A DNA stretch of 64,000 nucleotides from Candidatus Omnitrophota bacterium (lineage in GTDB: Bacteria; Omnitrophota; Gorgyraeia; Gygaellales; Profunditerraquicolaceae). The position numbers were made by a program, and so were the translations under genes. The stretch covers positions 140,154 to 204,153 of the forward strand of contig JBAZTA010000002.1 in the NCBI GenBank assembly GCA_041662125.1, given 5' to 3'. The notes under the pieces were generated by a model. That model saw nothing but the letters and a program-made list of their open reading frames with translations, searched no databases and was not told the DNA's origin. Within the stretch, counting starts at the first letter, position 1; every line of letters starts with the position of its first letter. This document shows positions 1 through 57,900 of the stretch, one piece after another.

Positions 1-30
1 GAACCCGATTTTACCATAAATGGGTTTAAG

Positions 31-3000
31 ATGAGTTCAAAAGGAGAATTGTCTGCAGATGAAGTTGCACTTCAAGATTTAAAGCAGGGTATTATAAGAA
101 TAAAGAGGGAGTATCATAATTTTTTCCAATTGTTCAACACAATGTTAAGAGCTGTTTATTTCAAGAATAAACTGGGGTTTGTTTTTGATGCGCGCTTGGA
201 ATCAATTATAAATGGGCGCAATTGGCAAGAAAGGTTAATCAACCTTATTACTATTCAAATCCCTTATTTCTTTGATAGGGTATTTCATCTGAAATTTGAA
301 CCTTGGGTGACTTGGATGTTGTTTAAGAGTCATGTTAAAAAGACCGAGATAAAGCTTAAAGGTGTATTGAGTAAGGGAGAAAAGACGAGTGCCGGTTCCC
401 CTGTCAGTAATGTTCTGGGAGCTTTAGCAATTAATAGCCAAGGATATGCCCAGACATTTTCTCGATGGATACCTGGTTTAGATATTGTATCTCCTGTGGA
501 TACGGAAAATATTACGGGGTTTGTTCAGTGGTTGAACTGGCATGGTTTTAATCAGTATCATGATGGGTTTGATTTTGCGGCATATAGGAGCGCAGACGGA
601 CTTTGTGCCTTAGGTTTGCCGGCGTATACTCCGGTCAGGGCAGTTGCGAAGGGAACAATCGTCAGCGCTGGCATAGAACAGATGTTTCGTGGTGAAAAGA
701 TGGAAGAACTCATGTATTATTTCCAGATCGTCATTGAACATGGAGAAGAAGATTCCGGCCTGACCTCTACCTATTTACATGTTACGCCAAAATTAAGTAT
801 GTGCAGAGAGGTGATCAAAGGCCAGGTGATAGGATATGTTTATAATGACAACTATGAGCGAAATACTCAGGGTGTATATTTAAATCATTTACATTTCCGG
901 ATCAATAATGGTTTTCGTGATCAACGTAATCTTGTTGATCCAGCGGTAATTCTTCCGGAATTAAATCGTCTGTATTGTCAGCCGCAAGGAGCTGCTCGAT
1001 TTAAAGTAGAAGGTATTGATGGCGAGCCGGTAATCTCCTTGCCGTCTTCAAAGAAGCTCTTGGGAGTCAGGTATGAGCCTCTTACGCATAGATCTGCATC
1101 TGCAGTGTCAGCAATGCTTATGTTGTCTGAAACTTGTAATCCAGAAAGAGTGTTTATCCTTGCGGGAGCTGCCCGCGCTCCGCCGGCTGTGTCTTCATCC
1201 AGCCCCATGATCAAAGCAATGCACGGCCGTTCTAAAACAGGTATTTTTGTCAGCGCTTTTAATCCTCTTACCACCGCAATGGAGGTAATGATGGAAGAAG
1301 CTAGGAAGCAATACGGCCTGGATAAAATAATCCTTATGCTGACGGCCAATCCTCTGTACACAAAAGCCTATGGGACAACACTTGAGCAAAGAAAAGAAAT
1401 GCTTCAGCTGTTTGTCGAAAGCAATCCGCAGTATTCCTATCAGGTAATCAATAAAAGTTTATATGTTGATATCCTCGAAGCTCTTAAAAAGCAACTCCAC
1501 CATGATGATCTGTATGTGATCCTGGGAATGCGTTCGTTTGAGCGTATCCTTTCCTGGGACTATGGCAGTAACCAGGAAGCTTTACCTGCATTGTTTGAGG
1601 GGCATCATTTTCTTATTGCGAATGAGAAGGATTTGCGTTTTGAGGATTTTAAGAATAATTCCTTGTTTTGTCGTACCTATGCCGGCAACCTTCATCCATT
1701 GCATATTGATGAAGAGTATCAAAAACACAGTTCCGCTGAAGTGCGGGTATTTGTCAAAGAAAAAGCTTCTCTTGCAGGGCTTGTTCCGGATGAGATCTTC
1801 CAATATATCCAGCAGAAGGGGATCTATCAAGGTTTTGCCGAATACGCGCAAGGCAGGGTCGCTTTAAGCGGGCAGACGTTTAAGGAATACCTTTTAACTA
1901 TGATGGCATCCTGTAAAAGGATCGATGGCAAAGGTAAGGTTATGGAGCGGGTCAAAGAATTCATCAGAGAGCGTTTAAGCCAGGGTGGTAAGGTTTCTAT
2001 ATTATCCATTGGCTGCGGCCAGGCAATTGACCTGGTTGTTTTAAAAGAGGCATTCCCGGATAATCCGTATATTGAATATTTGGGTATTGATATCAATCCT
2101 GATATTGTTGATGAAGCTCGGCTGGTCGCTTCAGATATGCATTTTATCGTGCGCGATATCATTGAACAGGATATCAGCGATTTAAAGCGGCGTTTTGATG
2201 TGGTCATGGTCACCAATACGCTCCATGAAGTCTATTCATATTATGGCAGGCCTACTCGCCGTGTCGAGGAAAGGATCAATCATGAACTTGGCCTTAGCTA
2301 TGTAAGTCAAGCGTTAGGTAATATTACCCAGATGCTTAAAGCCGCCGGGCATTTGTATGTTTATGACGGCGCGGATACCGCGCGGGATGAGCAATCTGAT
2401 CAGATAGTGATCAGGTTTAAGAAGAGGAATATCAAAGATGCATTCTATACTTTTGCCCATGAATTCCTGCCGAAAGAAGTGCCGTATGAGCAAGTCAATG
2501 GCGATGAGTATATGGTCAGGATATCCAAGAAAGATTTTATGCATTTTGTCTGCGAATATCAATATGTTGGAGACCAGCGGTGGGATATAGAAAAAGAAGA
2601 GAGTTGGCAGTATTTTTCAGTCGAAGAATATGTGACGGTGCTTTCCGGCCTCGGCTTCACGGTGAGTGTGGATAATTTTAGTCCAGAGAGGCAGCTAAAG
2701 TTATGGTCAGAAGACATCGAGATTATTTCGGAAAATGTCGATTTTCCGAGAATAGTATTATTTATTGAGGCAAGCTTAGACAAAAAGCGCAAAATTCAGG
2801 CCATTGATGAACAGGACGCGGCATTTTTGGTGCCGGAAGTAAAATCCAATGACCATAAAGGCAGCCGGGGAAGAGTATTGATTGCCGGAGGTTCGATAGG
2901 GAAATATTTAGGCGCGCTGCAGTTGGCGTCAAAAGCAGCGTTGCAGAGCGGCTCTGGTATGGTATATGCGGGTGTCTTGAAATATCTCTGGAGCATGTTT

Positions 3001-6000
3001 TACGCTAAGTCAGCGGATGAGGTCATGGCCTGCGCGTTGCCGCACCGGAAAGATCATTCGTTTGACCTGCTTTCGGCAGAAGGGCTCTTGCGGGAAGCTT
3101 CTCAAAATAAAATAGACGCGCTCGCTATTGGCCCCGGGCTTATCGTGAAAGAAGAACAGTCCCATGAAATTATGTACCGGTTATTAAGAAATATCCAGGT
3201 TCCTCTGGTTTTGGATGCCGGCGCTCTTAATGCTTTGGCGGGCAAGGCTTCAATTTTACGCAATGCCTGGGGCAGGACGGTCATTACGCCGCATATTGTT
3301 GAAATGGCGCGTTTGAGCGGTATACCTGTGGCAGAAATAATGTCGCGTCGTATTGATGTTGCCAGGGAGTTTGCTTGTGCGTACGGGACAGTGGTGGTGC
3401 TCAAGGGCGATGAAAACGATCGCACGCTTGTCGCATGCCCGGATGGAAGCGTCTATAGTAATTCTACCGGAAATAAATATATGGCAAAAGCCGGGATGGG
3501 GGATGTGCTTACCGGAATTATTGTCAGTTTTATCGGACAAGGTTTGTCTTCCCGTGAAGCAGCCGTATTGGGAGTCTATGTGCACGGGTTGGCAGCAGAT
3601 ATGGTTGTAAGCATCCAGAAGAGAAAAAGAGGGCTTCTCCCGACCCATGTGATAGAACAACTCTCCTTTGCCATCGATAGCCTCTGGGAGCATCGGGAAT
3701 CTTTTGTGCACCGTGATAAGGCCGTGCAGATCACGCCTCATGAGTTCAGAAGGATCGCCGCGGTTTATGGGCTGGAAATCGATAGTGATTCGCTTGATTT
3801 TCAAGGATTGAATAATAAGGTCGCCATACTCGATACGCATAATAAAGGCAAGGTCGTCATTAAGAAATCAGTCTGGGATTTAAAAGGCACGCTGTGGGAG
3901 CAAGAGCTTTTCAATAATTTAGCCAACAGGCAATTGCCTGAAATCATATATACGGAAGAAGGCAATGCCGCATATGTGGAAGCAGATGCTATCTTTACCG
4001 TGTATCGATTTGATTCTTTGGGAAGAATTTATGCATACGAAGAATTGACCGCGGAAATGTTTAAAAGTTTGGCTGAGTTTTTGGCCTGGCTGCATGTTTC
4101 TACCATGGATGGAAGAGTGTTGCATGTGCGAGGGGAAAGGATCACCGATCCTGTGGTTAAGTTCGCAGGCGTTGATGATCGTATGCTGAAATTAGACGAA
4201 GCATACCAGCGTTTTATTGCGAAAAACCCTGCCGGGTGGAACTTCGGGGAGCGTCTTTTTGTAGAGCATCAGCCTTTCTTTAAAGAGCAGATAGCTCTTG
4301 CAATACGTCATTTGGCAGGGATATATGAGCGCCTGCCGCGCGCTGTAATTCATGGGGATTTTCGCGCGGAAAACGTGACCATATCCGGTGATCATATTAG
4401 TAAGGTTCTTGACTGGGAAATTGCCAGAGAAGAAGTAAGGGTTTACGATTTGATCCGCAGCCTTTTCTATGACCTGCATAAATCCGGCGCGGAATTCAAT
4501 ATGGATGAGCTAAAAATCTGGGTGATCCTGTATCAGAAAGCAGCAGAGAAGTTCGGATACCCTTTAACGAGGGAAGAAATAATGATTATTCCTGAAATGC
4601 TGCGGCTGAAATTTATACAGCAGTTTAGTTGGCTGGTGCGATGGAATACCATTGAACGCCTTGAACAAGATCAAAATGAAAGACGGTTTTTTGAAAATTT
4701 GATAAAGGCTGCAAAAGTATTGGATGAGCAGGATTGGCAGAAGTTTTTTGCGGATGTTTTATCCGTGAGCAGGTGGGATCCCCGGAACTGCCTGGAAGAA
4801 TATGATTTCGCCCGGAAGAAAATTAATGAGGTAAACGGTAATATTGAGCATGCGGCTGTTTTGGTTGCGCAATACCGGCAAATAAAGAAACAAGATCGTC
4901 CAATTAAAATAAGCGTTTTTGTCCCTACCGCAAACTGCCTGCATAATGCTCATCAACGCCTCATTGAAGTTGCTCAAGATATACGCTTGCCGGGAGGGGA
5001 TCGTTTTGACGAAACAATAGTATTGCTGGGGACCAAACACGCTGAAAAAGAGGTAAAAGGCATGTCGCTTGAGGATAGGATCCTTACGGTCAAGGCTGTT
5101 TTTGATGAACACAAGGCAGAAGGTACGGCTGGAATCGATAAATTATTTTTAGTCAACACTGGCTGGTATTTGGAGATGGTAGTAGCCTTAAAAGCATATT
5201 ACCGGGAAAACTATTTCCAGGAAATCGAAGTTTATTTTATTATTGGAAAAGATTCGATGCAATCAACGCTTGCAAGTGAATTTGGGAAACTGTTGGAAGA
5301 AAGCTATTTTGTGGTAATGGACAGGCAGGGTTCCCGGATCGAAGATACGCTTGAATATAAAGAATTAGTTAAAGAAAAAGATAAAATCCTTACCCTGCAA
5401 TTTATCCCGAAGCCGGAAGAAGCCGATTTATCTTCGTCTAAGATTCGTCAGATGGTTAAGGATGGATTGTCTGTCGGGCGATTGGTTCCCCTGGCTGTTA
5501 ACGCTTTTATTATTGAGACGGGCGTATATCGTGATAGGGAAATGTATGAAGAGCGCCTGGTAAGGCTGGAGAAGATGCTTGAAGGTAGAAGATTGTTAGC
5601 TTCGTCTTCACCCATTACTTTTAAAGATGTAAATATCCTGGGTGTGGAAGAAGAGAAGTTGGGAATACTGCCGCTTATGTTCTTAAAGCAGAATAAAGGA
5701 AATTATCGGTTCGGTTACCAAATTTCAAATGGGCATGGAAGATATTGGGAAGTCAGGCAGCAGAAGACAGTGCGGTATATAGGTAAAGATATAAGGAGTT
5801 TATTTAAGTCTATAGCGGTTAGGCAGGATATTGAACAGTTCGACGCGGCAGGTAATCGAGAGGAGAAGATCGTGATTGTTTTGCCTACGGTTGGCGATCC
5901 TCTATACAAGCAATGGCTTCAGTCGCAGGTGCAAAGCCTGGGGAATCACTATAGGCTTACCTTTGTAGTTAACCTTAGTTTAAAGGATACTCTTGGCCTG

Positions 6001-9000: not shown

Positions 9001-12000
9001 TTTACGAGGACGACTATCCCGGCAAAAGCGCCGTCAAAAGTTATTATAGATACGAGGTTCGCAAGTTTAAACCGTCGGGGAAATATCAGCGGTGCCGGTA
9101 ATTTATTTGGCAATAGGATTGATTTAGTTGATTGGGATCTGGCAATAAAGTACGGGCAGGAAAGCGATACTCAACAAGAACACAGGGATAGAGTTCGCCG
9201 GCAGATGAATTTAATCGAAGATATACTTTGGCATGACGATGAGGCTATCAGCGCCAATACCAGACATGGGGTTAGCCAACTGACGGAACTTAATTGTTGG
9301 CTTTCAGGTTTGACGCAGGAAGTTAATCCCCATGGCCCTGATGGCACAAGTATAAGGATCCTTTTCGATTCAATAAAGAGGCAATCGCCCAATATAAAAC
9401 TTATTCACGGGGAAGGAGTAGCAATAGCTACGATACTCATGGCTTATTTGTATAACTTAGATTATAGAATGTTTATTACTGATGCGCAGCGTTTGGGGTT
9501 ACCTGTGGCTATCAAGGATATTGGCCTTACTCGGGAATCTTTGGTTCTTAGTTTGCTAACGGCTAAGCCTGACAAGCGGGGGTTCTCGTGGTTTAACAAT
9601 AATTCTATACAGGAAGAACAAGCAAGGCGGGTCATTGATGCGGTATTCGGCGCAAATTTAACATCAGGGAAAGTAGGTAAGATACGACCGCATTATTCTT
9701 GGAGAGGCAGGGAAGAGGATATCCCTGCGTTAAGTGGAGGGCCTCATCAGCGCGCCGAAATAATTGCTGGTTACCTTAGTGAACAAGGTATTTATTCTGA
9801 CCCTAAAGCGGAGTTACCGTCAAGGCAAGAATTAATGAAAATCATCAATACTGCAAGCTTAGCAATGAATTGTAATAGCGAAAAAGGCATGTTAGGGCGG
9901 AATATAAATGAGATTACGGCTGAATGTTTATTCAGGGAGGGGCATGTTATTTTTATTCCTAAATTAGATGAGTTTGCTTGCATTATGAGCGATGTTCAAG
10001 GGGACCTCCTTTCTCTTAATAGCCTGTTAGAGCAAGCAGGGTTTGTTCATAACATGGAAAGCGGGAAAAAGAACATAAGATTGATAGCACTGGGTGATTA
10101 TATTGACGGCGGTATTAATAATCTGGGAGTCTTAGTGAGGCTGATGGAATTAAAAATAAAATATCCCGAGCATGTTATCCTGTTAAGGGGTAATCACGAA
10201 TCGCGGAATGACCGGGAAGCTGTTAAACATTTCCCTGCTTATGAAAGGGATAGATTCAGGCGCCTTAACCAGAGCAAAATGTTAAGAGAGTTAGGGTATG
10301 TTAAATCGCAATCATATCTTATTTTTGAATTAATCGCGCGATACGGAGCGCAAGACGCAGATAAAATCTACGGCTCTCTCCTCAATTTGTTTAAACAATT
10401 GCCTACGCTTGCGGTAACCGCCACAAGGTTGGTTATGGCCCATGGCAATGCCCCTAACGAAGACAACGTGAGCCTTATCGACATTGCATATAATGATAAA
10501 ATCGCCAAGCAAATACGGGTTAATTCTTTCTGGGGCGATAAAGATTCTCCTAATGAACGTTTAACCGGCAGTTCGTATAAGATTAGAAAAAAAGGCTTTG
10601 AGAATTTTTTGCGGCGCATCGGGGGAAAGATATTCATTGGCGGGCATGTGTCTAAGGAGTCAGGCAACATTCAATGCGACGGCAAAATGATTGTGATCCA
10701 TTCGCAGAATAATCTGGCCAGCCGCGACAGCGGTTACTATTTCTTCCGTCAGGGCATTGGTAAAGGTTGTTATATCTGGCTCCCGTTAAATATTTCTTAT
10801 GATTTGTTCCCGCAGGAAGCTTTAAGGATCATGCCGTCGTCTAGTAATTCTTTAGCATTAACCTGCGCCTCACCGCTGGCTTTAAGAAATAACGAAAATG
10901 AAATCACCTGTTTTTCTATCTACGAAACTATTATGCCTAGTTTTACTCTTAATTTGGATCAATTTAAACATAATCTAAAGAGGGCATCTTTAGGAAAATT
11001 TATTTTTGTAAAACAGCTTAGCCATAACACCTGGCTAATGCGTGGCATTGACAATAAAAAGCGGTTGACCATAAAGATAATTACTCCGAGTATGACAAAA
11101 AAGGCTGGCTGCTTAAGGAATATTAAAGATACTAAGAGAATTATAAATATTATAGACAAATGGGATCCTCCCCATAAAATGCTTGCTCAAGGATTTTACA
11201 TAACAGATCGCGAAGGGAGTTTAGCGGTAGTTTCTCGTTATGTCATAGGCGTTGATCTGCAAGAATTCTTGACAGAAGGTCGTAGAAAATTTAATAATCC
11301 GGAATTATATGTTAAGTGGAGTGTGCAAGTTGCAAAAAAAATATTGCCGCAGGTGCGTGATTCGGTTAGTTATTTATATAGGGAGATACCTGGCCTGAAA
11401 GTATTTGATGCTGCGCCGTCAAATCTTATTGTTTCTAGTCAAGGTGTTACTTGGCTGTTAGACGTATTTATGCTTAATACAAGGAATAACGACGAAACCA
11501 CTGCTGTAATTGAAGTTAATCATATGATTGATTTGATAGCCAGAATTATAGCAAAAGAATTTGAACCATTTAAAATTGAAAAGATGATAGAAGCATATTT
11601 GATTTATGGCTATCCGTATCTAGACGATATTTGTGATTTAATTAAAAAGCAATGTGCCTCTCCGCTTGCGCAGAATGTCTTGAATGTATGGTCGCAATTG
11701 AAGCGTTTCCTGATACCTGAGAACAAAATAAGCAGATATCAGCCACTCGAAATTAAGCTCGATGGAATAGTAGGGCAAAATATTGATAATCCTTTGGTGT
11801 ATCATCAAAGGCTGGAATTTTTGCGGGCGGAGAGGATAAATTTATTAAGAAATCTAATATGCTACGAGTTAATAGTTGAACTTGGCCATGGAGGGAATCC
11901 AAACCTTTATGAAGATATCCGCAGAGTAGGTTTCCAGGGTTCTTATTCCGCGTTAGATTACTTTCCCTTTAATCAAAGGTGTCCTCTTAAAGGATTCCCC

Positions 12001-15000
12001 CATGTAGAAATTGACGTAAGAAACGCAGGCGCCGTAAACGAAATAATTGGTAAGTTACCAGCAGCAATAGTTTCAAATAATTTCTTGAGGCATTTAGGTG
12101 CGCACTATGCGCAAGGAATATGCTCACGAGATAATGCTTATATGGTGGCAGAGCTTTTACACAGTTACAACGCAGATCTACACATGCATGTAGGAGGGAT
12201 CCCTTCGGATGAAGCGGAGAGAAATAGCCGTTTTGCTGTACAAGACCAGATGGAATATATAAATTACATGAATCAAATACCGGAAGCATTAATAAAAAAA
12301 GGGTGGAGAGTTATCTTCCTGGAACATCATGGATATCGCGACTGGGTGTTTATCCGAGACGGCAGCTATATCAGTAGTGTCATGGCTGAATGGTTTAAGA
12401 ATATAATAAGTAGTGAGGATAAAATCAAGATAAGTCCCAATGCCTGTGGCGGCACTGCAGCCTCGCCGCTGGCAGAAAGGCTGCGTCACCATGCATTTGT
12501 CAGGCAGTTAGGGGGGGAAGCCATTACTTTTCTTGTTTCTTTATTGAAAAGGCCATCCAGCGAATTCGTAGCAGACGACCTGTTATCTGCCTTTAAAACT
12601 TTTAATAGTAATAAAAAAATAAAAATAATTAAATTAAGCGGAGAACCTTCCGAGTTAGCTGGAAAGCTTGAAGAATATTTAAATGGCAGTAGCGATACAT
12701 TGGTTCTCGTCGAACTTAAATTGGAATTCTTATATCATATTGAATATGCAGTGATAATTGATGAGGCGCGTTACATAAAATCACAATTAAACAAAATTAC
12801 GAAAGGGAGTGTGAGTAATTATGATTTTGAATTTGTCTTTTCAGCGGCGGTTTTCGAAAGATATGTTAATTTTGACTATATTTCTTTAGGCCGCACCCCG
12901 GAGGTTGTTGCGCGATTACGGGAAAAACATTTGATGTCAAAGACGTTTAAGAAAATTGTGGTTTTCCTTGAAAACAGGCACTTGAATAACAAGGTCAGGT
13001 TTTCTATAGCCAAAGGAAACTCTTTAATGGAGCACTGGGCAAAGAAATACTTCAGCGCAGAATGCATAGTGCCTAGTGAAAATCTTCAATACTGGGAAGG
13101 AATTATCGGAGCCCGCGCCTTATCCTCATCGCCGCTGATTTTTAGTCGAAACTCTTCATCTTCAATAGGGTTAAATAGGGGCAGCCCCAGGATTATACAG
13201 AAAAGAATTATGCCGAATATATTATCTTATAGGGCTGTATTTACGCTTCTGACTCCTTGTATTTGGACATTGGCTGGGTTAGCTTTGCTGCCTTATTCTT
13301 TTGCCAGGCAATTAGTTCTCATTCCTGTGGCTGTAGTCATTGTTAGTTATAGCGCAACTGCTTCTTTATTCTGGCTTATCAGAATATTCCGCTATCGAAA
13401 TTTGTCCTGGAAGGCAAAAGAAAGCTTTGCCAGGGTATTTATGCATCTGCGTATTTTTAACATATTCTTAGGCGCCGCTTTATTATTGCTTATAGGTTTA
13501 AATATTGCTGATGCCAAGCTTCCCAAATGCCTGCATTTAACCGGTACTGTGCAGTGGGGTTTTTCATTGTGGGCTGTTGTTGATATAGTACAGCATTTTA
13601 TTTATAAAATGGTCGGCGGAGTAAGAGGTTTACGCGATGAGATGCTTTGGAATATTGTATTATCAGTTTTAGGTAAACCTTATGATTTCAGCCGTCCAAA
13701 GGGAGGGACTGTTGGAAGAGAGTTGTCAAAATTAATCGAACGGATAAATAAACGTGAAATTTGTGCTTCTTCGCCGCTGGACGGCCAAGCAATTTTATTA
13801 AAAACCTGGCAGCAGGTAGCCAATGTTGGTGATTTAGACCAGATAAGGGCAATGGATATATTTGGATTTGCCCGCGCGTTAGGCGCTAAGGAAATGCAAC
13901 CGAAAAGATTTGATTCACTCCGTAGCCTGTGTGGACTATCCGTGACCCCGGCTTTGGTATGCATTTCAATTGAGGCTTGGCATCGTATCAGGGGAGATAG
14001 GATTGCCGAAGGGTTGAAAGAAAAACATTATGACATCCTTATTAGAAATCTATCACGCATACCGCAGATAGATGGCCCAGGACTGTATTATCGTAAAAAG
14101 GGAGTTCAAAACTATCCCAAGAGCGCTTTTGTGCATGAACTCCTGGAATTCAACGTTATAAATTCAGGATTAATAAACAGTAACTTTTATAATTTCTTAG
14201 GAAACTCCCATCAGATAGTGTTAGAAGGAGAATTGCGATTTGCCAGGCTTATCGGCATCCATGAATTCAGCCTAAGCCTTGAAAACATGCAGAAAAGGAT
14301 AGATACGTTAAAGGACGTTATATCTCAGTATTCTATTATTGAAGCAAAAAGAGAAATACTACGCATTAGCCTGGAGATTAAAAGTTTAATAAACAGTTCA
14401 TATACAGATGATTTTTTGAAGTCTTCTTTAGAGTTATGGCATCAAGCAAGGAAGACGGCCTCTTCCCCGCTGGCGTATGGAGTAGGGTTACGCAGCCTTT
14501 TCTTAGGGAAAAAGCTCCCTCTGCGGCATGAGCGCTTTGCCTATTGCCAGATAAAAGAAATTTACCGGAATTTATATCCGGAATTATCCGCTCAAGCTGT
14601 AGAAAGATTTCTTTCTCGCATCAGTTTGGGTGAATTTTCAATGGTTCATTTCTTTGGAAGGATACCGCTGGTGGGAATTATGTTTTATGTCTTTTCGCGC
14701 GTTGTGGTATGTTTGGTAGCTGCATTGTTTGCCGCGGGGGTTTTTTCTGTGGTGCAAACGTGCGGGATCGGGCAAGCCCTGTCGCATCTGGATATCGATC
14801 TTTTGTCATTTAAGGAGAAATTCATTTTCGGGATTATTGCCTCAACCGCGCTCTTAAAACCCTTAACCAGTGATGTCCGCGAATTCGCCAAGACCCTCCG
14901 TAAGGCCAAAGGCATATGCATTATCGACCCTGTTGGAACAGCGACTATTTTATTCAGGCCTCAGCGTAAAGCCAAACTGTCATTTGATCTTTCACCAGTT

Positions 15001-17406
15001 TTGCCCCATGAATTAGCTCATGCGTTGTTGCCTGAAGATTCAGGGCCTCTGTATACCGAGGGGATCCCTGAATTATTAACAGCGATAAGCCTGCATGAAC
15101 AAGGGGCTAGCGGCCGCTATGAAACCCAGGTAACCAGAGTAACACGGCTGCTTATGCCGGATTTTTCCCTTTCTGAATTAGAGTTTAGTTTGAGCGAGAT
15201 CGCGATCCGGTATTATATCAAACATAAAAAATTCGGAGAATGGTCGTATGCTTTTGGAGAAGCGATGTTTGTCGCTCTCCAGTATTATTTTCCTGATAAT
15301 ACTTTCGCGCATTATAAGGCCGCGCGTCTTATGATCGAAGGGATGGGGATTGAAAATGCTATCCGTGTCGCTCAAGGTGGAGAAGTAGTTCCTGATGAAC
15401 AAGATGAAAATGCAAAACTTCTCCACATGTTAGCATGCAAAGACCGTGTGCAGCGTTTGCTTGAAGAGAAAAACATCCGCAGGAACATAAAAGGGGACGG
15501 TTCTATTTTTCAAAGTTCTTCATCGTTGGCGCTTCGGGTACAGGTGCCCGATTGTGTTTGCAAACGGTACAATCTTAACTCTGCACCAGGTGCGAAGTTG
15601 TATTTGCTTCAGGAGAGGATTCCTCGTTGTGCCTCGTCTTTCTTAGGTTGTTTTGTCGCGACACGGACAAGTAGTTCCCCTCTCTATAAGGTGATAAACG
15701 GCGGAAATATTGATGAGGACAGCCTTAGGGGAATCGCCCGCATTGATCAAGAAGTACAGAATTCGTCTTATTACACAGTTTTTCCAAGAGATAACGGCCT
15801 TATCTGGAGAATAGCGGCAGATCCGGCGAATACTATTTATCTTAATGTCCTGGAAAATAAAATTTCCGGGTATCTTATATCCGGGCCGTTTGCTGGTTAT
15901 CCTGCTTATCTTTATTATATGGCAGTTGTGCCTCTATATCCTAAAGGGTATCTCGAAACCGGCTTATTGCGGGAACATATCCAGGCGATGCAAGAGAGCG
16001 CTGTTAATCAGATAACGCTGCATGTTAATGAGGATAGTTATGCTGGAGAATTTTATTACAAATTATATCAGAAGGAATTACCTATGCAGGTTATCGGCGT
16101 TGGATTTAAACGGGAGCGCAATGATATAAGCCATGAAGGCGTTATATACCTGCCTGGCGAAGCCGGCCCCTATAAAAGAGTGCAGATATTCTTAAAGAAA
16201 AATTTAGCTGCTTCACCGATACATGATCATGATCTGTATAGCCAGGATACGGCATTAAAGAAGATGTATTCATCTCTATTCTTAAACAGGATAACCGGCC
16301 CGTGGTTGATGAAGAGATTCTTAAGGAAAGGTGATCCGGAGAGATTAGGCAGGTTTTTATTATCGCTTGATCTATGTGTGGGATGGCGGCAGATATCGAC
16401 TAAACAATTTGTTCGGACTAATAAAGGGATTATGAAAGCTGTTGAATTTGCCCTGCAGAAAGATTTACTCACCAAGTATAGTTTTAACAACTATGGGGAA
16501 GTCGAGGAGGTATTACAGAGAGGGCACATTATTATTCTTAACGGTTCTATCCCCGCATTGATCGATACCGTAAGTATCCTTAACCGAAAGAAATGGCTCA
16601 GGGCGTATTATTTGGCAAATGGCCATAGGATTGATTTGGATAGTTTAATGTCTTCAGCAGGGGCGATTGAGCTGCTTTTATCCGCAAACGTTTGCAGTTT
16701 AGGCCAGGCATCGGCGTCTCCGATTATCTCCCCGGTTGGATCAAAAGACGTGGAGTCTTTTTTAGAAGAAGGGCGCATTTCTTTGAATAATGTAAAAGGC
16801 GGGCCGGCGATAGTCATCGATTCTGATCTAACGATATTTTTAAAAAAACCATTTGTAAAGATTGGTGATATTAAGTGGCACCTTTCTGATACGTACGCGG
16901 AGAAAACAAAGTACCTGACGATAGATGAAATAACGATTAAGGAAACCCTTGATGGGCAGGATCTCCAGGGCGGTGGTATCGGAGAAACTGTTTTTGTTTT
17001 CCTCGCCGCCTATCTATTATATTTAGGGCAGCAATATGAAGTTGATTTTGAATTACGGGTTGATCGAGTAGGGGATATACGGCTGTTAAATATTGTAAAA
17101 AGTATTTTTGCCCAAAAGTATCTTTTTGTCGATAATCAACGTATGAGCCAATCTTCTGGAGAGATACATCTCATCCGCCCGGGCAGCACAAAATTAATAC
17201 AACCGGTTGATATCCGCGTAGTTGTTTCTGCGCAAAGCATTATTTCTCAGCATATTGCTGTGAGCAGGAGCGCTTCTTCAGCGATAGAAGAAAAAAAAGC
17301 TTTTGAAGAGTCAGAGCGTGGGAGTGCCATGAAATTTACCATTACGCATACACAAAATCAAAAAGAAAGGCAGGTGAGGTTACGATGGAAGAGCGCAGGC
17401 ACCTAA
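31..17406 (+). CDS. giant multidomain protein (at least 5791 aa; the frame is still open at nt 1, so it may start upstream of the window)
   Basis: An ORF of 17.4 kb with no stop is far too long to arise by chance at this base composition. There is no in-frame stop in nt 1-30 and no good SD before the ATG at 31. The product contains many recognisable catalytic motifs, listed below as sub-features. Confidence 0.9.
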   Translation: MSSKGELSADEVALQDLKQGIIRIKREYHNFFQLFNTMLRAVYFKNKLGFVFDARLESIINGRNWQERLINLITIQIPYFFDRVFHLKFEPWVTWMLFKSHVKKTEIKLKGVLSKGEKTSAGSPVSNVLGALAINSQGYAQTFSRWIPGLDIVSPVDTENITGFVQWLNWHGFNQYHDGFDFAAYRSADGLCALGLPAYTPVRAVAKGTIVSAGIEQMFRGEKMEELMYYFQIVIEHGEEDSGLTSTYLHVTPKLSMCREVIKGQVIGYVYNDNYERNTQGVYLNHLHFRINNGFRDQRNLVDPAVILPELNRLYCQPQGAARFKVEGIDGEPVISLPSSKKLLGVRYEPLTHRSASAVSAMLMLSETCNPERVFILAGAARAPPAVSSSSPMIKAMHGRSKTGIFVSAFNPLTTAMEVMMEEARKQYGLDKIILMLTANPLYTKAYGTTLEQRKEMLQLFVESNPQYSYQVINKSLYVDILEALKKQLHHDDLYVILGMRSFERILSWDYGSNQEALPALFEGHHFLIANEKDLRFEDFKNNSLFCRTYAGNLHPLHIDEEYQKHSSAEVRVFVKEKASLAGLVPDEIFQYIQQKGIYQGFAEYAQGRVALSGQTFKEYLLTMMASCKRIDGKGKVMERVKEFIRERLSQGGKVSILSIGCGQAIDLVVLKEAFPDNPYIEYLGIDINPDIVDEARLVASDMHFIVRDIIEQDISDLKRRFDVVMVTNTLHEVYSYYGRPTRRVEERINHELGLSYVSQALGNITQMLKAAGHLYVYDGADTARDEQSDQIVIRFKKRNIKDAFYTFAHEFLPKEVPYEQVNGDEYMVRISKKDFMHFVCEYQYVGDQRWDIEKEESWQYFSVEEYVTVLSGLGFTVSVDNFSPERQLKLWSEDIEIISENVDFPRIVLFIEASLDKKRKIQAIDEQDAAFLVPEVKSNDHKGSRGRVLIAGGSIGKYLGALQLASKAALQSGSGMVYAGVLKYLWSMFYAKSADEVMACALPHRKDHSFDLLSAEGLLREASQNKIDALAIGPGLIVKEEQSHEIMYRLLRNIQVPLVLDAGALNALAGKASILRNAWGRTVITPHIVEMARLSGIPVAEIMSRRIDVAREFACAYGTVVVLKGDENDRTLVACPDGSVYSNSTGNKYMAKAGMGDVLTGIIVSFIGQGLSSREAAVLGVYVHGLAADMVVSIQKRKRGLLPTHVIEQLSFAIDSLWEHRESFVHRDKAVQITPHEFRRIAAVYGLEIDSDSLDFQGLNNKVAILDTHNKGKVVIKKSVWDLKGTLWEQELFNNLANRQLPEIIYTEEGNAAYVEADAIFTVYRFDSLGRIYAYEELTAEMFKSLAEFLAWLHVSTMDGRVLHVRGERITDPVVKFAGVDDRMLKLDEAYQRFIAKNPAGWNFGERLFVEHQPFFKEQIALAIRHLAGIYERLPRAVIHGDFRAENVTISGDHISKVLDWEIAREEVRVYDLIRSLFYDLHKSGAEFNMDELKIWVILYQKAAEKFGYPLTREEIMIIPEMLRLKFIQQFSWLVRWNTIERLEQDQNERRFFENLIKAAKVLDEQDWQKFFADVLSVSRWDPRNCLEEYDFARKKINEVNGNIEHAAVLVAQYRQIKKQDRPIKISVFVPTANCLHNAHQRLIEVAQDIRLPGGDRFDETIVLLGTKHAEKEVKGMSLEDRILTVKAVFDEHKAEGTAGIDKLFLVNTGWYLEMVVALKAYYRENYFQEIEVYFIIGKDSMQSTLASEFGKLLEESYFVVMDRQGSRIEDTLEYKELVKEKDKILTLQFIPKPEEADLSSSKIRQMVKDGLSVGRLVPLAVNAFIIETGVYRDREMYEERLVRLEKMLEGRRLLASSSPITFKDVNILGVEEEKLGILPLMFLKQNKGNYRFGYQISNGHGRYWEVRQQKTVRYIGKDIRSLFKSIAVRQDIEQFDAAGNREEKIVIVLPTVGDPLYKQWLQSQVQSLGNHYRLTFVVNLSLKDTLGLNTTRMGWHLGKISYVHISHQEIYKLEFQNRNLVRPTESLYEYFKYPYSRYLGNKVTQENIIDLGIGEISIVSALHKAIEPVADKREIDLLRDIIKTGEFEQVYYMFSYLLDTGKDDYQFLAKLYVFFDYEDFLERFGERKAKILHSLYSDYLEARWSKSSSAMLTRRQFITVLAGSVLFADVRNAFAQKIMKGLELGEIMQKEFKDLAFAEAEYLNYTFGLFSVSRTVQERIKVIAPLYASRERLNFVKADNVARLAASLGYYFDGRVPSVTIALNNPQTKQYSYLIVFQSDLFGQNQNHFPGVLAHELFGHVYDFEANPHKYNNDIAKALSLKKYVLISEEFAYATAEAILQEIIVKLKQKHAQLPKEQKIASLAVIEIFEADLAQHKEAHRYWKQKASSPFSCQPLIVSAVSPVEAFMQLMSGMHKKKIMPYYGSDNAGWEEFVKAVKALRKEKDIDATVISGPDLDCDSFEAFYESIGYVPSAMSFLLGKNGKITKTEREKEFLRYCIGNIYQHVSKGIGLILRYETALEGGRCAIISLSDNGDGFIHGDSQRLVPISEAIRFGKRFSFGAGGHAGRGLPLALIQADISVIITPQEAAIIHPRRRKPGDTGMRILQSVKVAKGAWRGTCICGVIYTGESKGSCSREVICTWEKLLSFLSVASSPLSKPHNQTGPDCSQITLKALLSELDSLQMALGCETSFNIIRITSWLTLPLEEFVANAALLVSKIKGWEDKKKIAVLWALREVAGEFPRSDIAQAKKYLQGKTEKCLIDLSDESLEALNSELSSSGWIFIRNRNLGNTVTELMPQAQCMVDKAIRQLIGDDEYERLFGFLGRYDDIVAKSRRVITLSQEIQQILRSISQPCSSPQAQGQNVSIDEDRLESFMSSLICSGKSFSLVTSPKVIEQMNIWDFPYLNTLLEQHIQVGQVQQDYLEPHYLKIKKQQPELIIGIGMGSVIEWAKLLGHKLDKNVIVIPSAVSTNAMFTRSVIIGNGAGDSFTRTTIPAKAPSKVIIDTRFASLNRRGNISGAGNLFGNRIDLVDWDLAIKYGQESDTQQEHRDRVRRQMNLIEDILWHDDEAISANTRHGVSQLTELNCWLSGLTQEVNPHGPDGTSIRILFDSIKRQSPNIKLIHGEGVAIATILMAYLYNLDYRMFITDAQRLGLPVAIKDIGLTRESLVLSLLTAKPDKRGFSWFNNNSIQEEQARRVIDAVFGANLTSGKVGKIRPHYSWRGREEDIPALSGGPHQRAEIIAGYLSEQGIYSDPKAELPSRQELMKIINTASLAMNCNSEKGMLGRNINEITAECLFREGHVIFIPKLDEFACIMSDVQGDLLSLNSLLEQAGFVHNMESGKKNIRLIALGDYIDGGINNLGVLVRLMELKIKYPEHVILLRGNHESRNDREAVKHFPAYERDRFRRLNQSKMLRELGYVKSQSYLIFELIARYGAQDADKIYGSLLNLFKQLPTLAVTATRLVMAHGNAPNEDNVSLIDIAYNDKIAKQIRVNSFWGDKDSPNERLTGSSYKIRKKGFENFLRRIGGKIFIGGHVSKESGNIQCDGKMIVIHSQNNLASRDSGYYFFRQGIGKGCYIWLPLNISYDLFPQEALRIMPSSSNSLALTCASPLALRNNENEITCFSIYETIMPSFTLNLDQFKHNLKRASLGKFIFVKQLSHNTWLMRGIDNKKRLTIKIITPSMTKKAGCLRNIKDTKRIINIIDKWDPPHKMLAQGFYITDREGSLAVVSRYVIGVDLQEFLTEGRRKFNNPELYVKWSVQVAKKILPQVRDSVSYLYREIPGLKVFDAAPSNLIVSSQGVTWLLDVFMLNTRNNDETTAVIEVNHMIDLIARIIAKEFEPFKIEKMIEAYLIYGYPYLDDICDLIKKQCASPLAQNVLNVWSQLKRFLIPENKISRYQPLEIKLDGIVGQNIDNPLVYHQRLEFLRAERINLLRNLICYELIVELGHGGNPNLYEDIRRVGFQGSYSALDYFPFNQRCPLKGFPHVEIDVRNAGAVNEIIGKLPAAIVSNNFLRHLGAHYAQGICSRDNAYMVAELLHSYNADLHMHVGGIPSDEAERNSRFAVQDQMEYINYMNQIPEALIKKGWRVIFLEHHGYRDWVFIRDGSYISSVMAEWFKNIISSEDKIKISPNACGGTAASPLAERLRHHAFVRQLGGEAITFLVSLLKRPSSEFVADDLLSAFKTFNSNKKIKIIKLSGEPSELAGKLEEYLNGSSDTLVLVELKLEFLYHIEYAVIIDEARYIKSQLNKITKGSVSNYDFEFVFSAAVFERYVNFDYISLGRTPEVVARLREKHLMSKTFKKIVVFLENRHLNNKVRFSIAKGNSLMEHWAKKYFSAECIVPSENLQYWEGIIGARALSSSPLIFSRNSSSSIGLNRGSPRIIQKRIMPNILSYRAVFTLLTPCIWTLAGLALLPYSFARQLVLIPVAVVIVSYSATASLFWLIRIFRYRNLSWKAKESFARVFMHLRIFNIFLGAALLLLIGLNIADAKLPKCLHLTGTVQWGFSLWAVVDIVQHFIYKMVGGVRGLRDEMLWNIVLSVLGKPYDFSRPKGGTVGRELSKLIERINKREICASSPLDGQAILLKTWQQVANVGDLDQIRAMDIFGFARALGAKEMQPKRFDSLRSLCGLSVTPALVCISIEAWHRIRGDRIAEGLKEKHYDILIRNLSRIPQIDGPGLYYRKKGVQNYPKSAFVHELLEFNVINSGLINSNFYNFLGNSHQIVLEGELRFARLIGIHEFSLSLENMQKRIDTLKDVISQYSIIEAKREILRISLEIKSLINSSYTDDFLKSSLELWHQARKTASSPLAYGVGLRSLFLGKKLPLRHERFAYCQIKEIYRNLYPELSAQAVERFLSRISLGEFSMVHFFGRIPLVGIMFYVFSRVVVCLVAALFAAGVFSVVQTCGIGQALSHLDIDLLSFKEKFIFGIIASTALLKPLTSDVREFAKTLRKAKGICIIDPVGTATILFRPQRKAKLSFDLSPVLPHELAHALLPEDSGPLYTEGIPELLTAISLHEQGASGRYETQVTRVTRLLMPDFSLSELEFSLSEIAIRYYIKHKKFGEWSYAFGEAMFVALQYYFPDNTFAHYKAARLMIEGMGIENAIRVAQGGEVVPDEQDENAKLLHMLACKDRVQRLLEEKNIRRNIKGDGSIFQSSSSLALRVQVPDCVCKRYNLNSAPGAKLYLLQERIPRCASSFLGCFVATRTSSSPLYKVINGGNIDEDSLRGIARIDQEVQNSSYYTVFPRDNGLIWRIAADPANTIYLNVLENKISGYLISGPFAGYPAYLYYMAVVPLYPKGYLETGLLREHIQAMQESAVNQITLHVNEDSYAGEFYYKLYQKELPMQVIGVGFKRERNDISHEGVIYLPGEAGPYKRVQIFLKKNLAASPIHDHDLYSQDTALKKMYSSLFLNRITGPWLMKRFLRKGDPERLGRFLLSLDLCVGWRQISTKQFVRTNKGIMKAVEFALQKDLLTKYSFNNYGEVEEVLQRGHIIILNGSIPALIDTVSILNRKKWLRAYYLANGHRIDLDSLMSSAGAIELLLSANVCSLGQASASPIISPVGSKDVESFLEEGRISLNNVKGGPAIVIDSDLTIFLKKPFVKIGDIKWHLSDTYAEKTKYLTIDEITIKETLDGQDLQGGGIGETVFVFLAAYLLYLGQQYEVDFELRVDRVGDIRLLNIVKSIFAQKYLFVDNQRMSQSSGEIHLIRPGSTKLIQPVDIRVVVSAQSIISQHIAVSRSASSAIEEKKAFEESERGSAMKFTITHTQNQKERQVRLRWKSAGT
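430..960 (+). other. domain in the giant ORF: peptidase M23 (LytM-like)
   Basis: HDGFDF (HxxxD) lies at about nt 559 and HLHFRI (HxH) at about nt 886. These are the characteristic zinc ligands of M23 peptidases. Confidence 0.6.
1230..1830 (+). other. domain in the giant ORF: NadD/cytidylyltransferase-like nucleotidyltransferase fold (copy 1, degenerate)
   Basis: GIFVSAFNPLTTAM resembles the GxFxPxHxxH box, with His replaced. The C-terminal ...SSAEVRVFV... resembles the SxxxIR motif. Confidence 0.35.
1900..2600 (+). other. domain in the giant ORF: class I SAM-dependent methyltransferase
   Basis: Motif I is ILSIGCGQAIDL, motif II is YLGIDINPDIVDEAR, and a later motif is FDVVMVTNTLHEV. Confidence 0.65.
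2840..3640 (+). other. domain in the giant ORF: NAD(P)H-hydrate dehydratase (YjeF C-terminal / Nnr2-like carbohydrate-kinase fold)
   Basis: The family signatures GSRGRVLIAGGSIGKYLGALQLA, VITPHIVEMARL, VVVLKG..T and GMGDVLTGII occur in the canonical order. Confidence 0.75.
3900..4700 (+). other. domain in the giant ORF: aminoglycoside-phosphotransferase/choline-kinase-like (APH) kinase
   Basis: VIHGDFRAENV is the Brenner HGDxxxxN catalytic loop. VLDWE is the metal-binding DxE. Both lie at nt 4345-4420. Confidence 0.7.
4900..5530 (+). other. domain in the giant ORF: NadD/cytidylyltransferase-like nucleotidyltransferase fold (copy 2)
   Basis: ISVFVPTANCLHNAHQRL resembles the (H/T)xGH box. The SSSKIRQMV tail resembles the SxxxIR motif. 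Confidence 0.45.
8840..8970 (+). other. domain in the giant ORF: DHQ-synthase/Fe-alcohol-dehydrogenase-like nucleotide-binding segment
   Basis: GIGMGSVIEWAKLLG followed by VIVIPSAVSTNAMFT resembles the GGGSxxDxAK and PTTxxTGSE blocks of the DHQS/glycerol dehydrogenase superfamily. Confidence 0.35.
9950..10750 (+). other. domain in the giant ORF: PPP-family (calcineurin-like) metallophosphatase, possibly divergent
   Basis: GDLLS stands in for GDxHG, GDYIDGG for GDxVDRG, and LLRGNHE is a perfect GNHE motif. The first-motif His and the Arg of motif 2 are substituted. Confidence 0.55.
13200..13620 (+). other. domain in the giant ORF: cluster of about 4 predicted transmembrane helices, with another at about 14640-14770
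   Basis: Long hydrophobic runs occur at VFTLLTPCIWTLAGLALLPY, LVLIPVAVVIVSYSATASLFWLI, IFLGAALLLLIGLNIA and FSLWAVVDIVQHFIY. A later run is LVGIMFYVFSRVVVCLVAALFAAGVF. Confidence 0.5.
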
Positions 17407-18092
17407 CAAGGTGGCATATCAATAAAGATTGTAAAATAAAGCTGGAAGGGGCTTTAGCATATGCTGATGCTCAGGTTAAGGATGTTAATTTTAAAGGAGG
17501 AAGTATTTCTTTAAAAAAACATTTAGTGCTGGATAAATTCTTAAAAATGCATATAATAATTTCTGAGGGGTTCTCTTTTGAAGCAGAGCTTTGGATCATC
17601 TGGCAGAAGCGAATTGCTGACACTACCGTTTATGGCTTTTGTTTCAAAACCCTTAAGGACCAGGATAAGGAGCAGTTATATAAATTTATCCGCAACCAAT
17701 ATCCCGGGCAGCTCAACCGGCAATGGTGGAGAGAGGATATTAAAAAAGGAGGAGGTACTGTTATGCACGATGAGAGTTTCGATGATAAAAGGATTTTTGA
17801 GCGGTTTTCGGTTAGTTTATCGTTAAAACTGTTAGCGTTAGATTCCAATATGGAAGATGCCGCGCAGGTGCAGGATATTAGTGCTAAAGGATTGGGTTTA
17901 GTGACAAGAGGCTGGTACCCTCCTCATACGCCGCTTGAGATGTGGCTTTCTGTTCCTGACCAGGGGCAGCCGCTTTATACCCGAGGTTCTGTATCATGGT
18001 CAAATCTGGAAGGCCCTGATAATTTCAGGACAGGCGTTGAATTAGAAAAAGCTGATTTAATGGGAGTTTCTCGAGTCTTGAGGGCGGTGTAA
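17385..18092 (+). CDS. tandem PilZ-domain protein (c-di-GMP receptor-like)
   Basis: Two PilZ signatures are present: RRHLTRW...DVNFKGGSISL and RIFERFSVSL...QDISAKGLGL. An SD (aggtgagg) lies 7 nt upstream. The start overlaps the giant ORF stop by 22 nt. Confidence 0.7.
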   Translation: MEERRHLTRWHINKDCKIKLEGALAYADAQVKDVNFKGGSISLKKHLVLDKFLKMHIIISEGFSFEAELWIIWQKRIADTTVYGFCFKTLKDQDKEQLYKFIRNQYPGQLNRQWWREDIKKGGGTVMHDESFDDKRIFERFSVSLSLKLLALDSNMEDAAQVQDISAKGLGLVTRGWYPPHTPLEMWLSVPDQGQPLYTRGSVSWSNLEGPDNFRTGVELEKADLMGVSRVLRAV

Positions 18093-22946: not shown

Positions 22947-23196
22947 TCTTCCTGTTCCCATTTTCCTCTCTTTTGGAAATATACTTTCCTTTTTTTCTCC
23001 GTCACCCGAGGTGTCCATATATATTGATTTGTTTTTGGAAAAAAGATTGATTATATGCTATAGTTTAATTAGATAGAGTAGTTCGTTCAATATAGTTTTC
23101 AACCTACTGAAAAAGGCAAACTAGCAGTAATGCTGGGGCGCAAAGCGACAGCCCCGATTATTTAATCGGGGGGCTGCGTTGCCAAAGAGGAAAAGC

Positions 23197-25901: not shown

Positions 25902-26185
25902 TGCGGCAACCCCTGTCTGTTAATGACGGCAAGGGAAGGGATATGCAAGCCAAAGGCCGCTGGTTCTCCGGAAGACGTCTGGAGATAAATGAAACAATAA
26001 GAAAAAGAGTGTTTGTTGTAGTATTAAGTATATAATGAATGAGTGTCCTGCCTAACGTAAGAACTTGTTTTTTGTGAGCTAAAGGTTTTATATGAAAGCT
26101 AAAAGGCTGTCTTGGTGTGCATCGATTTTGTCTTCTTTTGGGGAAAGAAATATCTTGCATTGTAGTAATCAGGGGAACTTATGCG

Positions 26186-57878: not shown

Positions 57879-57900
57879 GTATAATTCTAAAGGGGGTTTT

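Follow-up and report, generated by a model that had tools for sequence, protein, structure and literature searches.

A giant Omnitrophota-type gene made of autonomous modules punctuated by a short conserved peptide, a candidate bacterial polyprotein

Giant open reading frames (ORFs) are common in Omnitrophota (PMC10066038). The closest described kinds are the "Archaeovorins", multi-enzyme giants of Omnitrophota collected with a cut-off of >30 kaa (thousand amino acids; West-Roberts et al. 2023, bioRxiv 10.1101/2023.11.21.568195), and the class 1 "multi-enzyme metabolic clusters", collected with a cut-off of ≥10 kaa (Nielsen & Lui 2026, bioRxiv 10.64898/2026.06.07.730766). N-terminal S8 and C39 peptidase domains were reported in the full-length Archaeovorins; cleavage was suspected, and the cleavage points were stated to be unknown. 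The present analysis concerns a gene of this kind that occupies the first 17,406 nucleotides of a 64,000-nucleotide stretch from a Candidatus Omnitrophota bacterium (assembly GCA_041662125.1, contig JBAZTA010000002.1, positions 140,154-204,153; hereafter the window). Its product is very probably a head-to-tail chain of at least 16 autonomous modules, punctuated by a short peptide.

The window giant is a new member of the Archaeovorin or class 1 kind, and the gene type itself has already been described. The first-pass annotation of this DNA, which took the domain composition to be undescribed, was mistaken on that point, the class being covered by both papers. The likeness extends to the Omnitrophota host, to the many enzyme Pfam domains that tile the ORF with none dominating (methyltransferase, kinase/phosphotransferase, peptidase, GNAT-like), to several transmembrane segments, to sequence that is mostly unique or Pfam-dark, and to the occurrence of housekeeping-type enzymes in related giants. 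The window giant differs in its visible length of at least 5801 residues, its 5' end lying outside the window, as against the cut-offs of ≥10 and >30 kaa. No GT/GH, NUDIX, SecA-like (SecA_DEAD), C39 or S8 domain was found in the visible 5801 residues. Neither paper mentions [AS][AS]SPL punctuation, junction indels or stand-alone homologues of the modules, nor a linker, polyprotein or junction motif of any sort, and a limited literature search for the motif strings returned unrelated acronyms only. The clade-specific punctuation apparently has not been described so far.

The 17.4-kb frame represents a real gene of giant size from an Omnitrophota-type bacterium. Frame +0 of the forward strand is stop-free from nt 1 to a terminal TAA codon, giving 5801 sense codons (5791 if counted from the first ATG, at nt 31); because the ORF reaches the 5' edge of the window, this length is a lower bound. 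The runner-up among stop-free stretches in all six frames of the window spans 1060 codons. Enzyme domains recognized by Pfam and NCBIfam all lie in the one frame and are spread along it, the Pfam set comprising Peptidase_M23, two CTP_transf_like, Methyltransf, Carb_kinase, APH, Fe-ADH and Metallophos. In seven segments common to the window giant and a related metagenome locus, L047, the ratio of nonsynonymous to synonymous substitution rates (dN/dS) was 0.13-0.34, Pfam-dark modules included. L047 comes from an independent metagenome assembly and shows the same in-frame joints at aa 399, 1868, ∼2159, 4375 and 5224; the joints at 2399-4153, 4589-5223 and 5403-5570 are specific to the window and are without support from an independent assembly.

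About half of the giant protein, including all of aa 3622-5801, had no Pfam match at E ≤ 1. Searches of three dark stretches with phmmer against PDB sequences returned no relative, and word-index homology searches found no homologue for aa 3622-4819 or aa 2158-2398. A Kyte-Doolittle scan, which is the sole basis for the transmembrane helices, gave hydrophobic peaks at aa 4412-4503 and 4885-4919. The MnmE gene adjoining the giant is 79% identical to that of a metagenome-assembled genome (MAG) labelled "Planctomycetales" (mislabelled or unclassified), followed by Omnitrophota MAGs at 54-56%, and all five full-length homologues of a five-enzyme block within the giant are annotated Candidatus Omnitrophica. 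No rRNA gene is present in the window, so that placement in Omnitrophota is indirect. These results bear out much of the first-pass annotation, which had read the region as one real giant gene with an Omnitrophota link, as something other than a nonribosomal peptide synthetase or polyketide synthase (NRPS/PKS), RTX or cadherin-type repeat protein (the Pfam search returned no such domains), and as a succession of dissimilar enzyme folds for small-molecule and phospho-transfer chemistry; the folds identified here are an M23 peptidase, two NadD-like domains, a methyltransferase, an NAD(P)HX dehydratase, a kinase, a dehydrogenase-like domain and a phosphatase. The junction peptide and the cassette modularity described below had been overlooked.

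The pentapeptide [A/S/C][A/S]-S-P-[L/I/F/M/Q] occurs 14 times in the window giant (positions in Table 1), with a Ser-Pro-Leu core and the consensus [A/S/C]-[A/S]-S-P-[L/I]. Shuffling of the giant sequence gave a mean of 0.08 matches and a maximum of 2 in 2000 shuffles, and the remaining ORFs in the window, 12,153 aa in all, gave no match. With a position-specific scoring matrix built from the junction sites, true sites scored ≥17 and the remainder of the giant protein ≤11. A looser form of the motif was found 3 times per 48,268 aa in ordinary ORFs of related genomes, or 0.06 per kaa, compared with 2.6 per kaa in the giant. The motif is therefore real and strongly over-represented, and it is placed at module boundaries. 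In an AlphaFold2 model of a single module (module 10) the fold was confident, with a predicted local distance difference test score (pLDDT) of 90.7, and the motif lay outside it; the model has no structural neighbor in the PDB. In a two-module model, pLDDT was <50 at residues 208-215 and ≥92 from residue 221, the junction forming a low-confidence segment beside a confident domain.

That the units between junctions are autonomous is apparent from their relatives. The five-enzyme block, which runs from junction to junction (aa 399-1867), aligns with stand-alone Omnitrophota proteins of 1336-1599 aa at 97-99% coverage and 45-49% identity; homology begins ∼12 aa past the first junction and ends at the second. 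The stand-alone proteins have a hydrophobic N-terminal leader of their own and end in a conserved ...EQAI sequence; neither falls within the aligned span. Exhaustive phmmer searching of aa 3622-4819 against 1.84 billion representatives recovered relatives (27-40% identical) for all but one of the five modules located there, with match edges at the junctions (e.g. query 965/967/969 to 1196 for the module spanning query 968-1198). Some of these matches fall in small proteins that stand alone (186-311 aa), and others occupy differing places within larger ones (1.5-6.7 kaa).

A metagenome scan with an alignment of the five-enzyme block gave five loci, L047-L051. For L047, L048, L050 and L051 the whole 24.4 kb fetched was one frame open off both ends (≥8100 aa). 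Relatives differ from one another by whole modules with breakpoints on the motif, and modules are found elsewhere as separate genes or reordered in other giants. The window giant and L047 share four homology blocks (Table 1; 79% identity in the shared parts), each edge of which lies on a junction. L047 lacks five modules (aa 2399-4152) and has in their place a pair of junction motifs spaced 23 aa apart. At junctions where the downstream module differs, similarity persists through ...WKQK-ASSP and ...ERINKREI-ASSPL and is then lost. L048 has distant copies of two window modules in the opposite order, and in L050 the copy of membrane module 9 is 77% identical whereas the five-enzyme block is 49% identical. 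The L047 ORF 2-12001 includes a very strong CoaBC/DFP domain (E 3e-77) together with an Rce1-like CPBP intramembrane protease domain (aa 156-344, 771-867), and the L047 giant also holds a GT2 domain; the CoaBC/DFP domain indicates that essential housekeeping enzymes can sit inside giant ORFs.

Paired junction motifs only 17-41 aa apart ("empty slots") were seen at L047 aa 5365-5388, L048 aa 7953-7988 and L051 aa 221-241, 457-474 and 6647-6688. Such slots could have been left behind when a module was lost, or could represent very short peptides that are released.

When words were sought without bias as enriched 4-mers, the junction peptide emerged from each of five giants: the top 4-mer was SSPL in the window giant (47-fold), SSSP in L047 (64-fold), ASPL in L048 (49-fold), SASP in L050 (76-fold) and SPLG/SSPL in L051 (about 80-fold). 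Loose-motif counts in the same order were 15, 9, 14, 9 and 17, against shuffle means of 0.3-0.5, and a further protein of 6713 aa (P0019) has nine copies. The motif stands at the N-terminal boundary of the five-enzyme block in L047, L048, L050 and L051. L049 (Ga0164318_10000668, ORF 2-13240) is without the SASPL motif and has a word of its own, K-K-V-V-S-D-T-x-F, which occurs six times (aa 393, 406, 732, 2701, 2978 and 2992), is 153-fold enriched, and has one copy ∼35 aa upstream of the five-enzyme block. VSDT may be a lineage-specific alternative junction.

Selection at the junctions acts chiefly on the peptide. At seven orthologous window/L047 junctions, 20 of the 35 motif codons were identical, 13 differed synonymously and 2 nonsynonymously, compared with 43 identical, 20 synonymous and 33 nonsynonymous among 96 flanking codons (Fisher p = 7e-4 for the nonsynonymous difference between motif and flank). 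In L051, S-P-L is encoded with AGC for serine rather than TCG. The scarcity of nonsynonymous changes at the motif and the AGC serine of L051 together imply that the dominant constraint is on the peptide.

These properties are consistent with a giant product that is a polyprotein precursor cleaved at its junctions. We put the probability of this reading at roughly 50%, a figure that includes the punctuated architecture. The product would be translated as a single precursor chain, and a site-specific protease would recognize the [A/S][A/S]-S-P-L junction, most simply cutting after Leu. Such a cut would release individual proteins, namely enzymes (e.g. NadD-like), membrane proteins and an exported protein with a signal resembling those of the twin-arginine translocation (Tat) pathway, and the junctions would be the points at which modules come and go as in-frame cassettes. 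The sequence [A/S]-S-P-L resembles the classical subtilisin-type substrate A-A-P-L/F.

That so exact a pentapeptide has been retained between relatives with no more than 41-49% identity implies that some factor recognizes it. Site-specific proteolysis is favored as the purpose of that recognition because the modules are autonomous proteins elsewhere, because the Tat-like signal inside the chain could work only at a free N terminus, and because lineages use different words, as expected for co-evolution of a protease with its site. It is favored further by putative proteases in cis, namely the M23 peptidase, a membrane module with HExxH (aa 5003) and a module with HExxE (aa 4589-4819) in the window giant and the Rce1-like CPBP domain in related giants, and by the N-terminal S8 and C39 peptidases reported in complete giants. 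Judged by their sequences, cytoplasmic-type enzymes, membrane modules and a Tat-like signal in one chain are hard to reconcile with a single folded polypeptide. More tentatively, the proposal may extend to one Omnitrophota clade in which giant ORFs are true polyproteins, with dozens of ordinary proteins per chain (NadD-like and CoaBC-like housekeeping enzymes among them), a dedicated protease, a clade-specific junction peptide and in-frame cassettes.

Several observations weigh against cleavage. No S8, S1 or C80 signature was found in the readable parts of the giants, the 5' end of the window gene lying beyond the window, and no protease of matching specificity was found in the available fragments. 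The curated Tat hidden Markov models of TIGR and Pfam gave no match to the Tat-like sequence. The low pLDDT near junctions is perhaps partly due to shallow alignments. Junction DNA is biased to GCC TCG CCG CTG GC in genomes of 40-47% GC: among 64 junctions, 47 use CCG, which exceeds even the highest background (p = 4e-6), and 28 use TCG (p = 8e-9). Such G/C-biased codons hint at some added DNA- or RNA-level effect. Punctuation as a general property of giants was rejected, no enriched 4-mer being present in P0033, P0015, P0030, P0011 or P0013; the lack of such a word in other large proteins marks punctuation as clade-specific. A conserved linker could, moreover, serve as a hinge or as a place for modification or docking instead of cleavage.

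This last point leads to the strongest of the rival explanations, in which the product stays one uncleaved, membrane-anchored multi-enzyme scaffold and the pentapeptide is a hinge, a docking site or a site of Ser phosphorylation or O-glycosylation. The clusters of hydrophobic helices could anchor the chain, and giants with transmembrane segments only have been read as an anchored cytoplasmic assembly (Nielsen & Lui 2026, 10.64898/2026.06.07.730766). That no protease of fitting specificity was found counts in favor of the scaffold, as do the kinase-like and PPP phosphatase modules within the chain. S-P is, in addition, a common phospho-acceptor context. Flexible linkers normally drift, however, and here a specific 5-mer is kept at 41-49% identity between relatives; modules also function elsewhere as separate small proteins, a conserved internal Tat-like signal would be useless without a new N terminus, and lineage-specific words such as VSDT in L049 look like co-evolution of an enzyme with its site. 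An uncleaved scaffold is on balance somewhat unlikely. That the motif has no function as a peptide, being the footprint of DNA-level cassette shuffling by microhomology-mediated or site-specific in-frame recombination with the giant ORF as its accumulated outcome, would explain why all indel and rearrangement breakpoints fall on it, why the junction DNA is biased and why short empty slots separate paired motifs. This explanation is nonetheless improbable, given that synonymous drift is free while amino acids are held (13 versus 2 changes), that L051 has the same peptide from a different serine codon family, that the conserved 9-15 nt are short for homologous recombination, and that no recombinase or repeat structure flanks the junctions, which share only the motif itself.

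Separate translation of the modules from internal starts, as in an operon without stops, with the motif serving re-initiation or ribosomal skipping, draws on the Met that directly follows some junctions (SSSP-M at aa 403, SSSA-M at aa 2163) and on a fifth codon that is often a near-cognate start (CTG, ATT, ATA, ATG). CTT, CTC, TTT and CAG also occur at this fifth position, however, and we know of no bacterial 2A-like skipping. Internal starts were rejected as very improbable because no Shine-Dalgarno-like sequence precedes any junction, whereas the downstream PilZ gene has a clear one. Least credible of all is an artefactual origin of the long ORF, whether by chimeric assembly, as a pseudogene or as a frame open by chance. 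It is true that there is a single assembly, that the window-specific joints are without independent confirmation and that the 3' end reads through an intergenic leader. Against this stand the excess of 5801 stop-free codons over the maximum of 1060 elsewhere in the window, in-frame enzyme domains throughout, the low dN/dS, independent assemblies with the same joints and even longer ORFs, and shared motif DNA that is far shorter than assembler k-mers and not identical between junctions. Cleavage of a polyprotein at the junctions remains the reading that we prefer.

Table 1. Modules and junctions of the giant ORF and blocks shared with L047 (residue and nucleotide numbers of the window giant unless stated otherwise)
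Feature	Residues	Nucleotides	Strand	Remarks
Giant ORF	≥5801 aa	1-17406	+	5' part beyond window edge; TAA 17404-17406
Module 0	1-398	1-1194	+	unknown N-terminal part and M23 peptidase (HDGFD aa 187, HLH aa 296)
Weak junction-like AGSPV	131		+	inside module 0
Junction SSSPM	399	1195-1209	+	kept in L047, L048, L050 and L051 at N-boundary of five-enzyme block
Module 1 (five-enzyme block)	399-1867	1195-5601	+	NadD-like, S-adenosylmethionine (SAM)-methyltransferase, NAD(P)HX dehydratase (YjeF_C), APH/ThrB-like kinase, second NadD-like
Junction SSSPI	1868	5602-5616	+	motif; L047 comparison
Module 2a	1868-2158	5602-6474	+	Pfam-dark; L047 orthologue 75% identical
Degenerate junction SSSAM	2159	6475-6489	+	orthologous L047 site has full SSSPV junction plus 31-aa segment
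Module 2b	2163-2398	6487-7194	+	starts with twin-arginine-like MLTRRQFITVLAGS...AFAQ; contains HELFGH
Junction ASSPF	2399	7195-7209	+	L047 homology stops here
Module 3	2399-2663	7195-7989	+	DNGDGF motif; distant copies in L048, P0019 and L049; absent from L047
Junction ASSPL	2664	7990-8004	+	motif
Module 4	2664-2866	7990-8598	+	dark; weakly similar to module 8
Junction CSSPQ	2867	8599-8613	+	motif
Module 5	2867-3621	8599-10863	+	glycerol-1-phosphate-dehydrogenase-like (Fe-ADH fold) and PPP-type metallophosphatase (GDYIDGG, GNHE)
Junction CASPL	3622	10864-10878	+	motif
Module 6	3622-3884	10864-11652	+	weak protein-kinase-like match (E 0.02); no homologue in exhaustive phmmer search
Junction CASPL	3885	11653-11667	+	motif
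Module 7	3885-4152	11653-12456	+	VELGHGG motif; homologues are small stand-alone proteins, 222-311 aa
Junction AASPL	4153	12457-12471	+	L047 homology resumes here
Module 8	4153-4374	12457-13122	+	family also occurs stand-alone and within other giants, P0011 having three copies
Junction SSSPL	4375	13123-13137	+	motif; L047 comparison
Module 9	4375-4588	13123-13764	+	membrane module with ∼3 hydrophobic helices; small membrane proteins (186-253 aa) are its stand-alone homologues
Junction ASSPL	4589	13765-13779	+	L047 homology stops here
Module 10	4589-4819	13765-14457	+	uncharacterized widespread domain, GPGIYY ... F-x-H-E-x-x-E ... LEGELRFA; H, E, E invariant
Junction ASSPL	4820	14458-14472	+	motif
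Module 11	4820-5223	14458-15669	+	two hydrophobic helices and HExxH (HELAH aa 5003; weak SprT-like match); candidate membrane metalloprotease
Junction SSSPL	5224	15670-15684	+	motif; L047 comparison
Module 12	5224-5402	15670-16206	+	weak GNAT-like match; L047 orthologue 75% identical
Junction AASPI	5403	16207-16221	+	motif; L047 comparison
Module 13	5403-5570	16207-16710	+	dark; absent from L047, where flanking modules abut
Junction SASPI	5571	16711-16725	+	motif
Module 14	5571-5775	16711-17325	+	dark; L047 orthologue 62% identical
Tail, 25 codons		17326-17406	+	reads through conserved PilZ leader
Block shared with L047	391-2403			L047 aa 3326-5369
Block shared with L047	4145-4596			L047 aa 5380-5832
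Block shared with L047	5215-5414			L047 aa 6063-6262
Block shared with L047	5577-5779			L047 aa 6253-6456

The modules are unrelated to one another except for the two NadD-like domains and one weak pair, and tandem duplication or internal paralogy was rejected as the origin of the chain. Module 0 shows no homology to the sequence upstream in L047, and a search of genome and metagenome contigs with these N-terminal 398 aa gave no match; its M23 peptidase has HxxxD and HxH motifs. The first NadD-like domain has F-N-P-L-T-T-A-M (nt 1240-1290, aa ∼414-430) in place of the canonical H-x-G-H nucleotidyl-transferase motif, where the homologues P0001-P0005 have T-[IV]-S-[MI], and the second NadD-like domain of the giant retains H-N-A-H. 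As judged from these residues, the first copy may be non-canonical or non-catalytic. The twin-arginine-like start of module 2b (nt 6487-6570, aa 2163-2190), which directly follows a junction, reads M-L-T-R-R-Q-F-I-T-V-L-A-G-S-V-L-F-A-D-V-R-N-A-F-A-Q and is kept in L047 (aa ∼5126-5155), the shared pattern being M-[LF]-T-R-R-Q-F-I-T-x-L-A-G-S...F-A-Q. The family of module 10 has more than 20 distant relatives, in which G-P-G-I-Y-Y is near-invariant and which usually lie near the C terminus of large Omnitrophota-type proteins; the model of this module is possibly that of a new hydrolase or metal-binding fold.

At its 3' end, the giant stops 22 nt inside a PilZ-domain gene (17385-18092). Its last 25 codons are a PilZ leader that is conserved in relatives and includes the Shine-Dalgarno sequence GGTGAGG; in the relatives the giant ends at an out-of-frame TGA ∼75 nt earlier. 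A seemingly unrelated long ORF upstream of PilZ-MnmE in locus L002 matches L047 aa 6453-8135 over its aa 15-1697 with 71% identity. This ORF is thus a continuation of the L047 giant, making the giant-PilZ-MnmE locus orthologous in the window, L047 and L002. The orthologous giant, L047 plus L002, exceeds 8200 aa, and the window gene is short of ∼1750 C-terminal residues that are present there. The read-through of the PilZ leader and the stop inside the PilZ start point to a deletion joint, and the sequence looks like that of a recent event in which ∼1750 codons were removed.

Two conserved ends were observed in stand-alone Omnitrophota relatives of the modules (L044 1656-18447; L043 9677-14338; P0001, P0003-5, P0012, P0014-16, P0018, P0025 and P0041). 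The N-terminal end is a hydrophobic leader (e.g. MK..R.KQTNTFFRITALALIWA or KIIALLLIQSF) followed at aa ∼35-50 by T/C-L-S/A-P-Q-[IV]-x-[IL]...F-Q..Y; the C-terminal end of many of them is [IV]-E-Q-A-I-COOH (also KQAA and KTAA), and five consecutive L044 genes have both. Neither end has a Pfam or NCBIfam model. The pair looks like an undescribed sorting or processing signal pair, and the L-S-P core of the leaders may be related to the junction of the giant. The L044 spacers between these genes (4944-5112, 6958-6993, 9862-10000 and 14720-14781) contain heptamer arrays of TTACAAG, TTGCAAA and TTATAAA and a repeated hairpin element, CCCCTCGAAGATTTAC...GTAAATGTTCGAG.

Beyond the giant gene, the window has the makeup of an ordinary Gram-negative chromosome, with all genes on the + strand and positive GC skew throughout. 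Its genes include PilZ, MnmE, GTP cyclohydrolase I (FolE), a CheB-CheR-PAS fusion, a histidine kinase, sulfatases, AccA, a TolC/RND efflux set, PanE, two FabF and a B12-radical-SAM protein. A cyclic di-GMP-I riboswitch (GGC variant; 63.9 bits against a gathering score of 59) at 23106-23187 on the + strand precedes an ORF at 23284-23928 and lies a few kb from the PilZ gene. The CheB-CheR-PAS-PAS fusion protein (26117-29230) has 1037 aa, and 55384-59361 encodes two tandem FabF paralogues followed by the B12-binding radical-SAM protein, which has BchE/HpnJ-like and ladder-lipid-like matches.

The literature explicitly leaves open whether Omnitrophota giants act as single molecules or as many cut products. 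A motif at module boundaries supplies explicit candidate processing sites and makes the question testable. The motif is also a practical domain parser that splits giants into foldable units, and motif type can be correlated with protease repertoire. If the proposal is true, polyprotein expression and in-frame cassette evolution would be a bacterial strategy of gene organization not established for cellular prokaryotes; if cleavage is refuted, the motif would still be a conserved inter-module element.

Comparison with other multi-domain systems places the giant outside several of them. MARTX (multifunctional autoprocessing RTX) toxins (PMC3153235, PMC6315884) are likewise bacterial proteins of several thousand residues; they carry unrelated catalytic modules in series, and exchange of cassettes makes the repertoire differ from strain to strain. 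The window giant has no RTX repeats in its visible part (Pfam), and no genes for dedicated type I secretion adjoin it; the TolC/RND set at 46.8-52.1 kb is of the drug-efflux type and 29 kb away. No Pfam match to the C80 cysteine protease domain was found in the window giant, L047 or L048. Cleavage after a Leu in the linkers between domains frees the MARTX modules, and the junction of the window giant has a near-invariant Leu or Ile. Its modules are, however, largely of housekeeping type rather than known cytotoxic effectors, and its junction motif is far more uniform than MARTX linkers. The giant has no condensation, adenylation, KS, AT or carrier domains, and the FabF genes at 55-58 kb are ordinary ones distinct from it. 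In the polymorphic toxins CdiA and Rhs (PMC3482391), a short conserved peptide (VENN or PxxxxDPxGL) similarly marks the recombination point at which variable modules are swapped; these proteins have one variable C-terminal toxin and an adjacent immunity gene, whereas the window giant has more than 14 tandem junctions, no immunity genes and, by Pfam, no Rhs or filamentous-haemagglutinin repeats. With the defining domains of each class absent, the giant belongs neither to the MARTX toxins nor to the NRPS/PKS enzymes or the polymorphic toxins.

The viral polyproteins of picornaviruses and flaviviruses also join unrelated units in one chain with a short, lineage-specific consensus peptide, and the VSDT word of L049 parallels the co-evolution of viral proteases with their sites. 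The window giant differs in being a cellular chromosomal gene in an ordinary bacterial context, the cleavage of which we infer. Two features that characterize polyproteins were nevertheless found in it: autonomous units in one ORF and a conserved motif at each junction.

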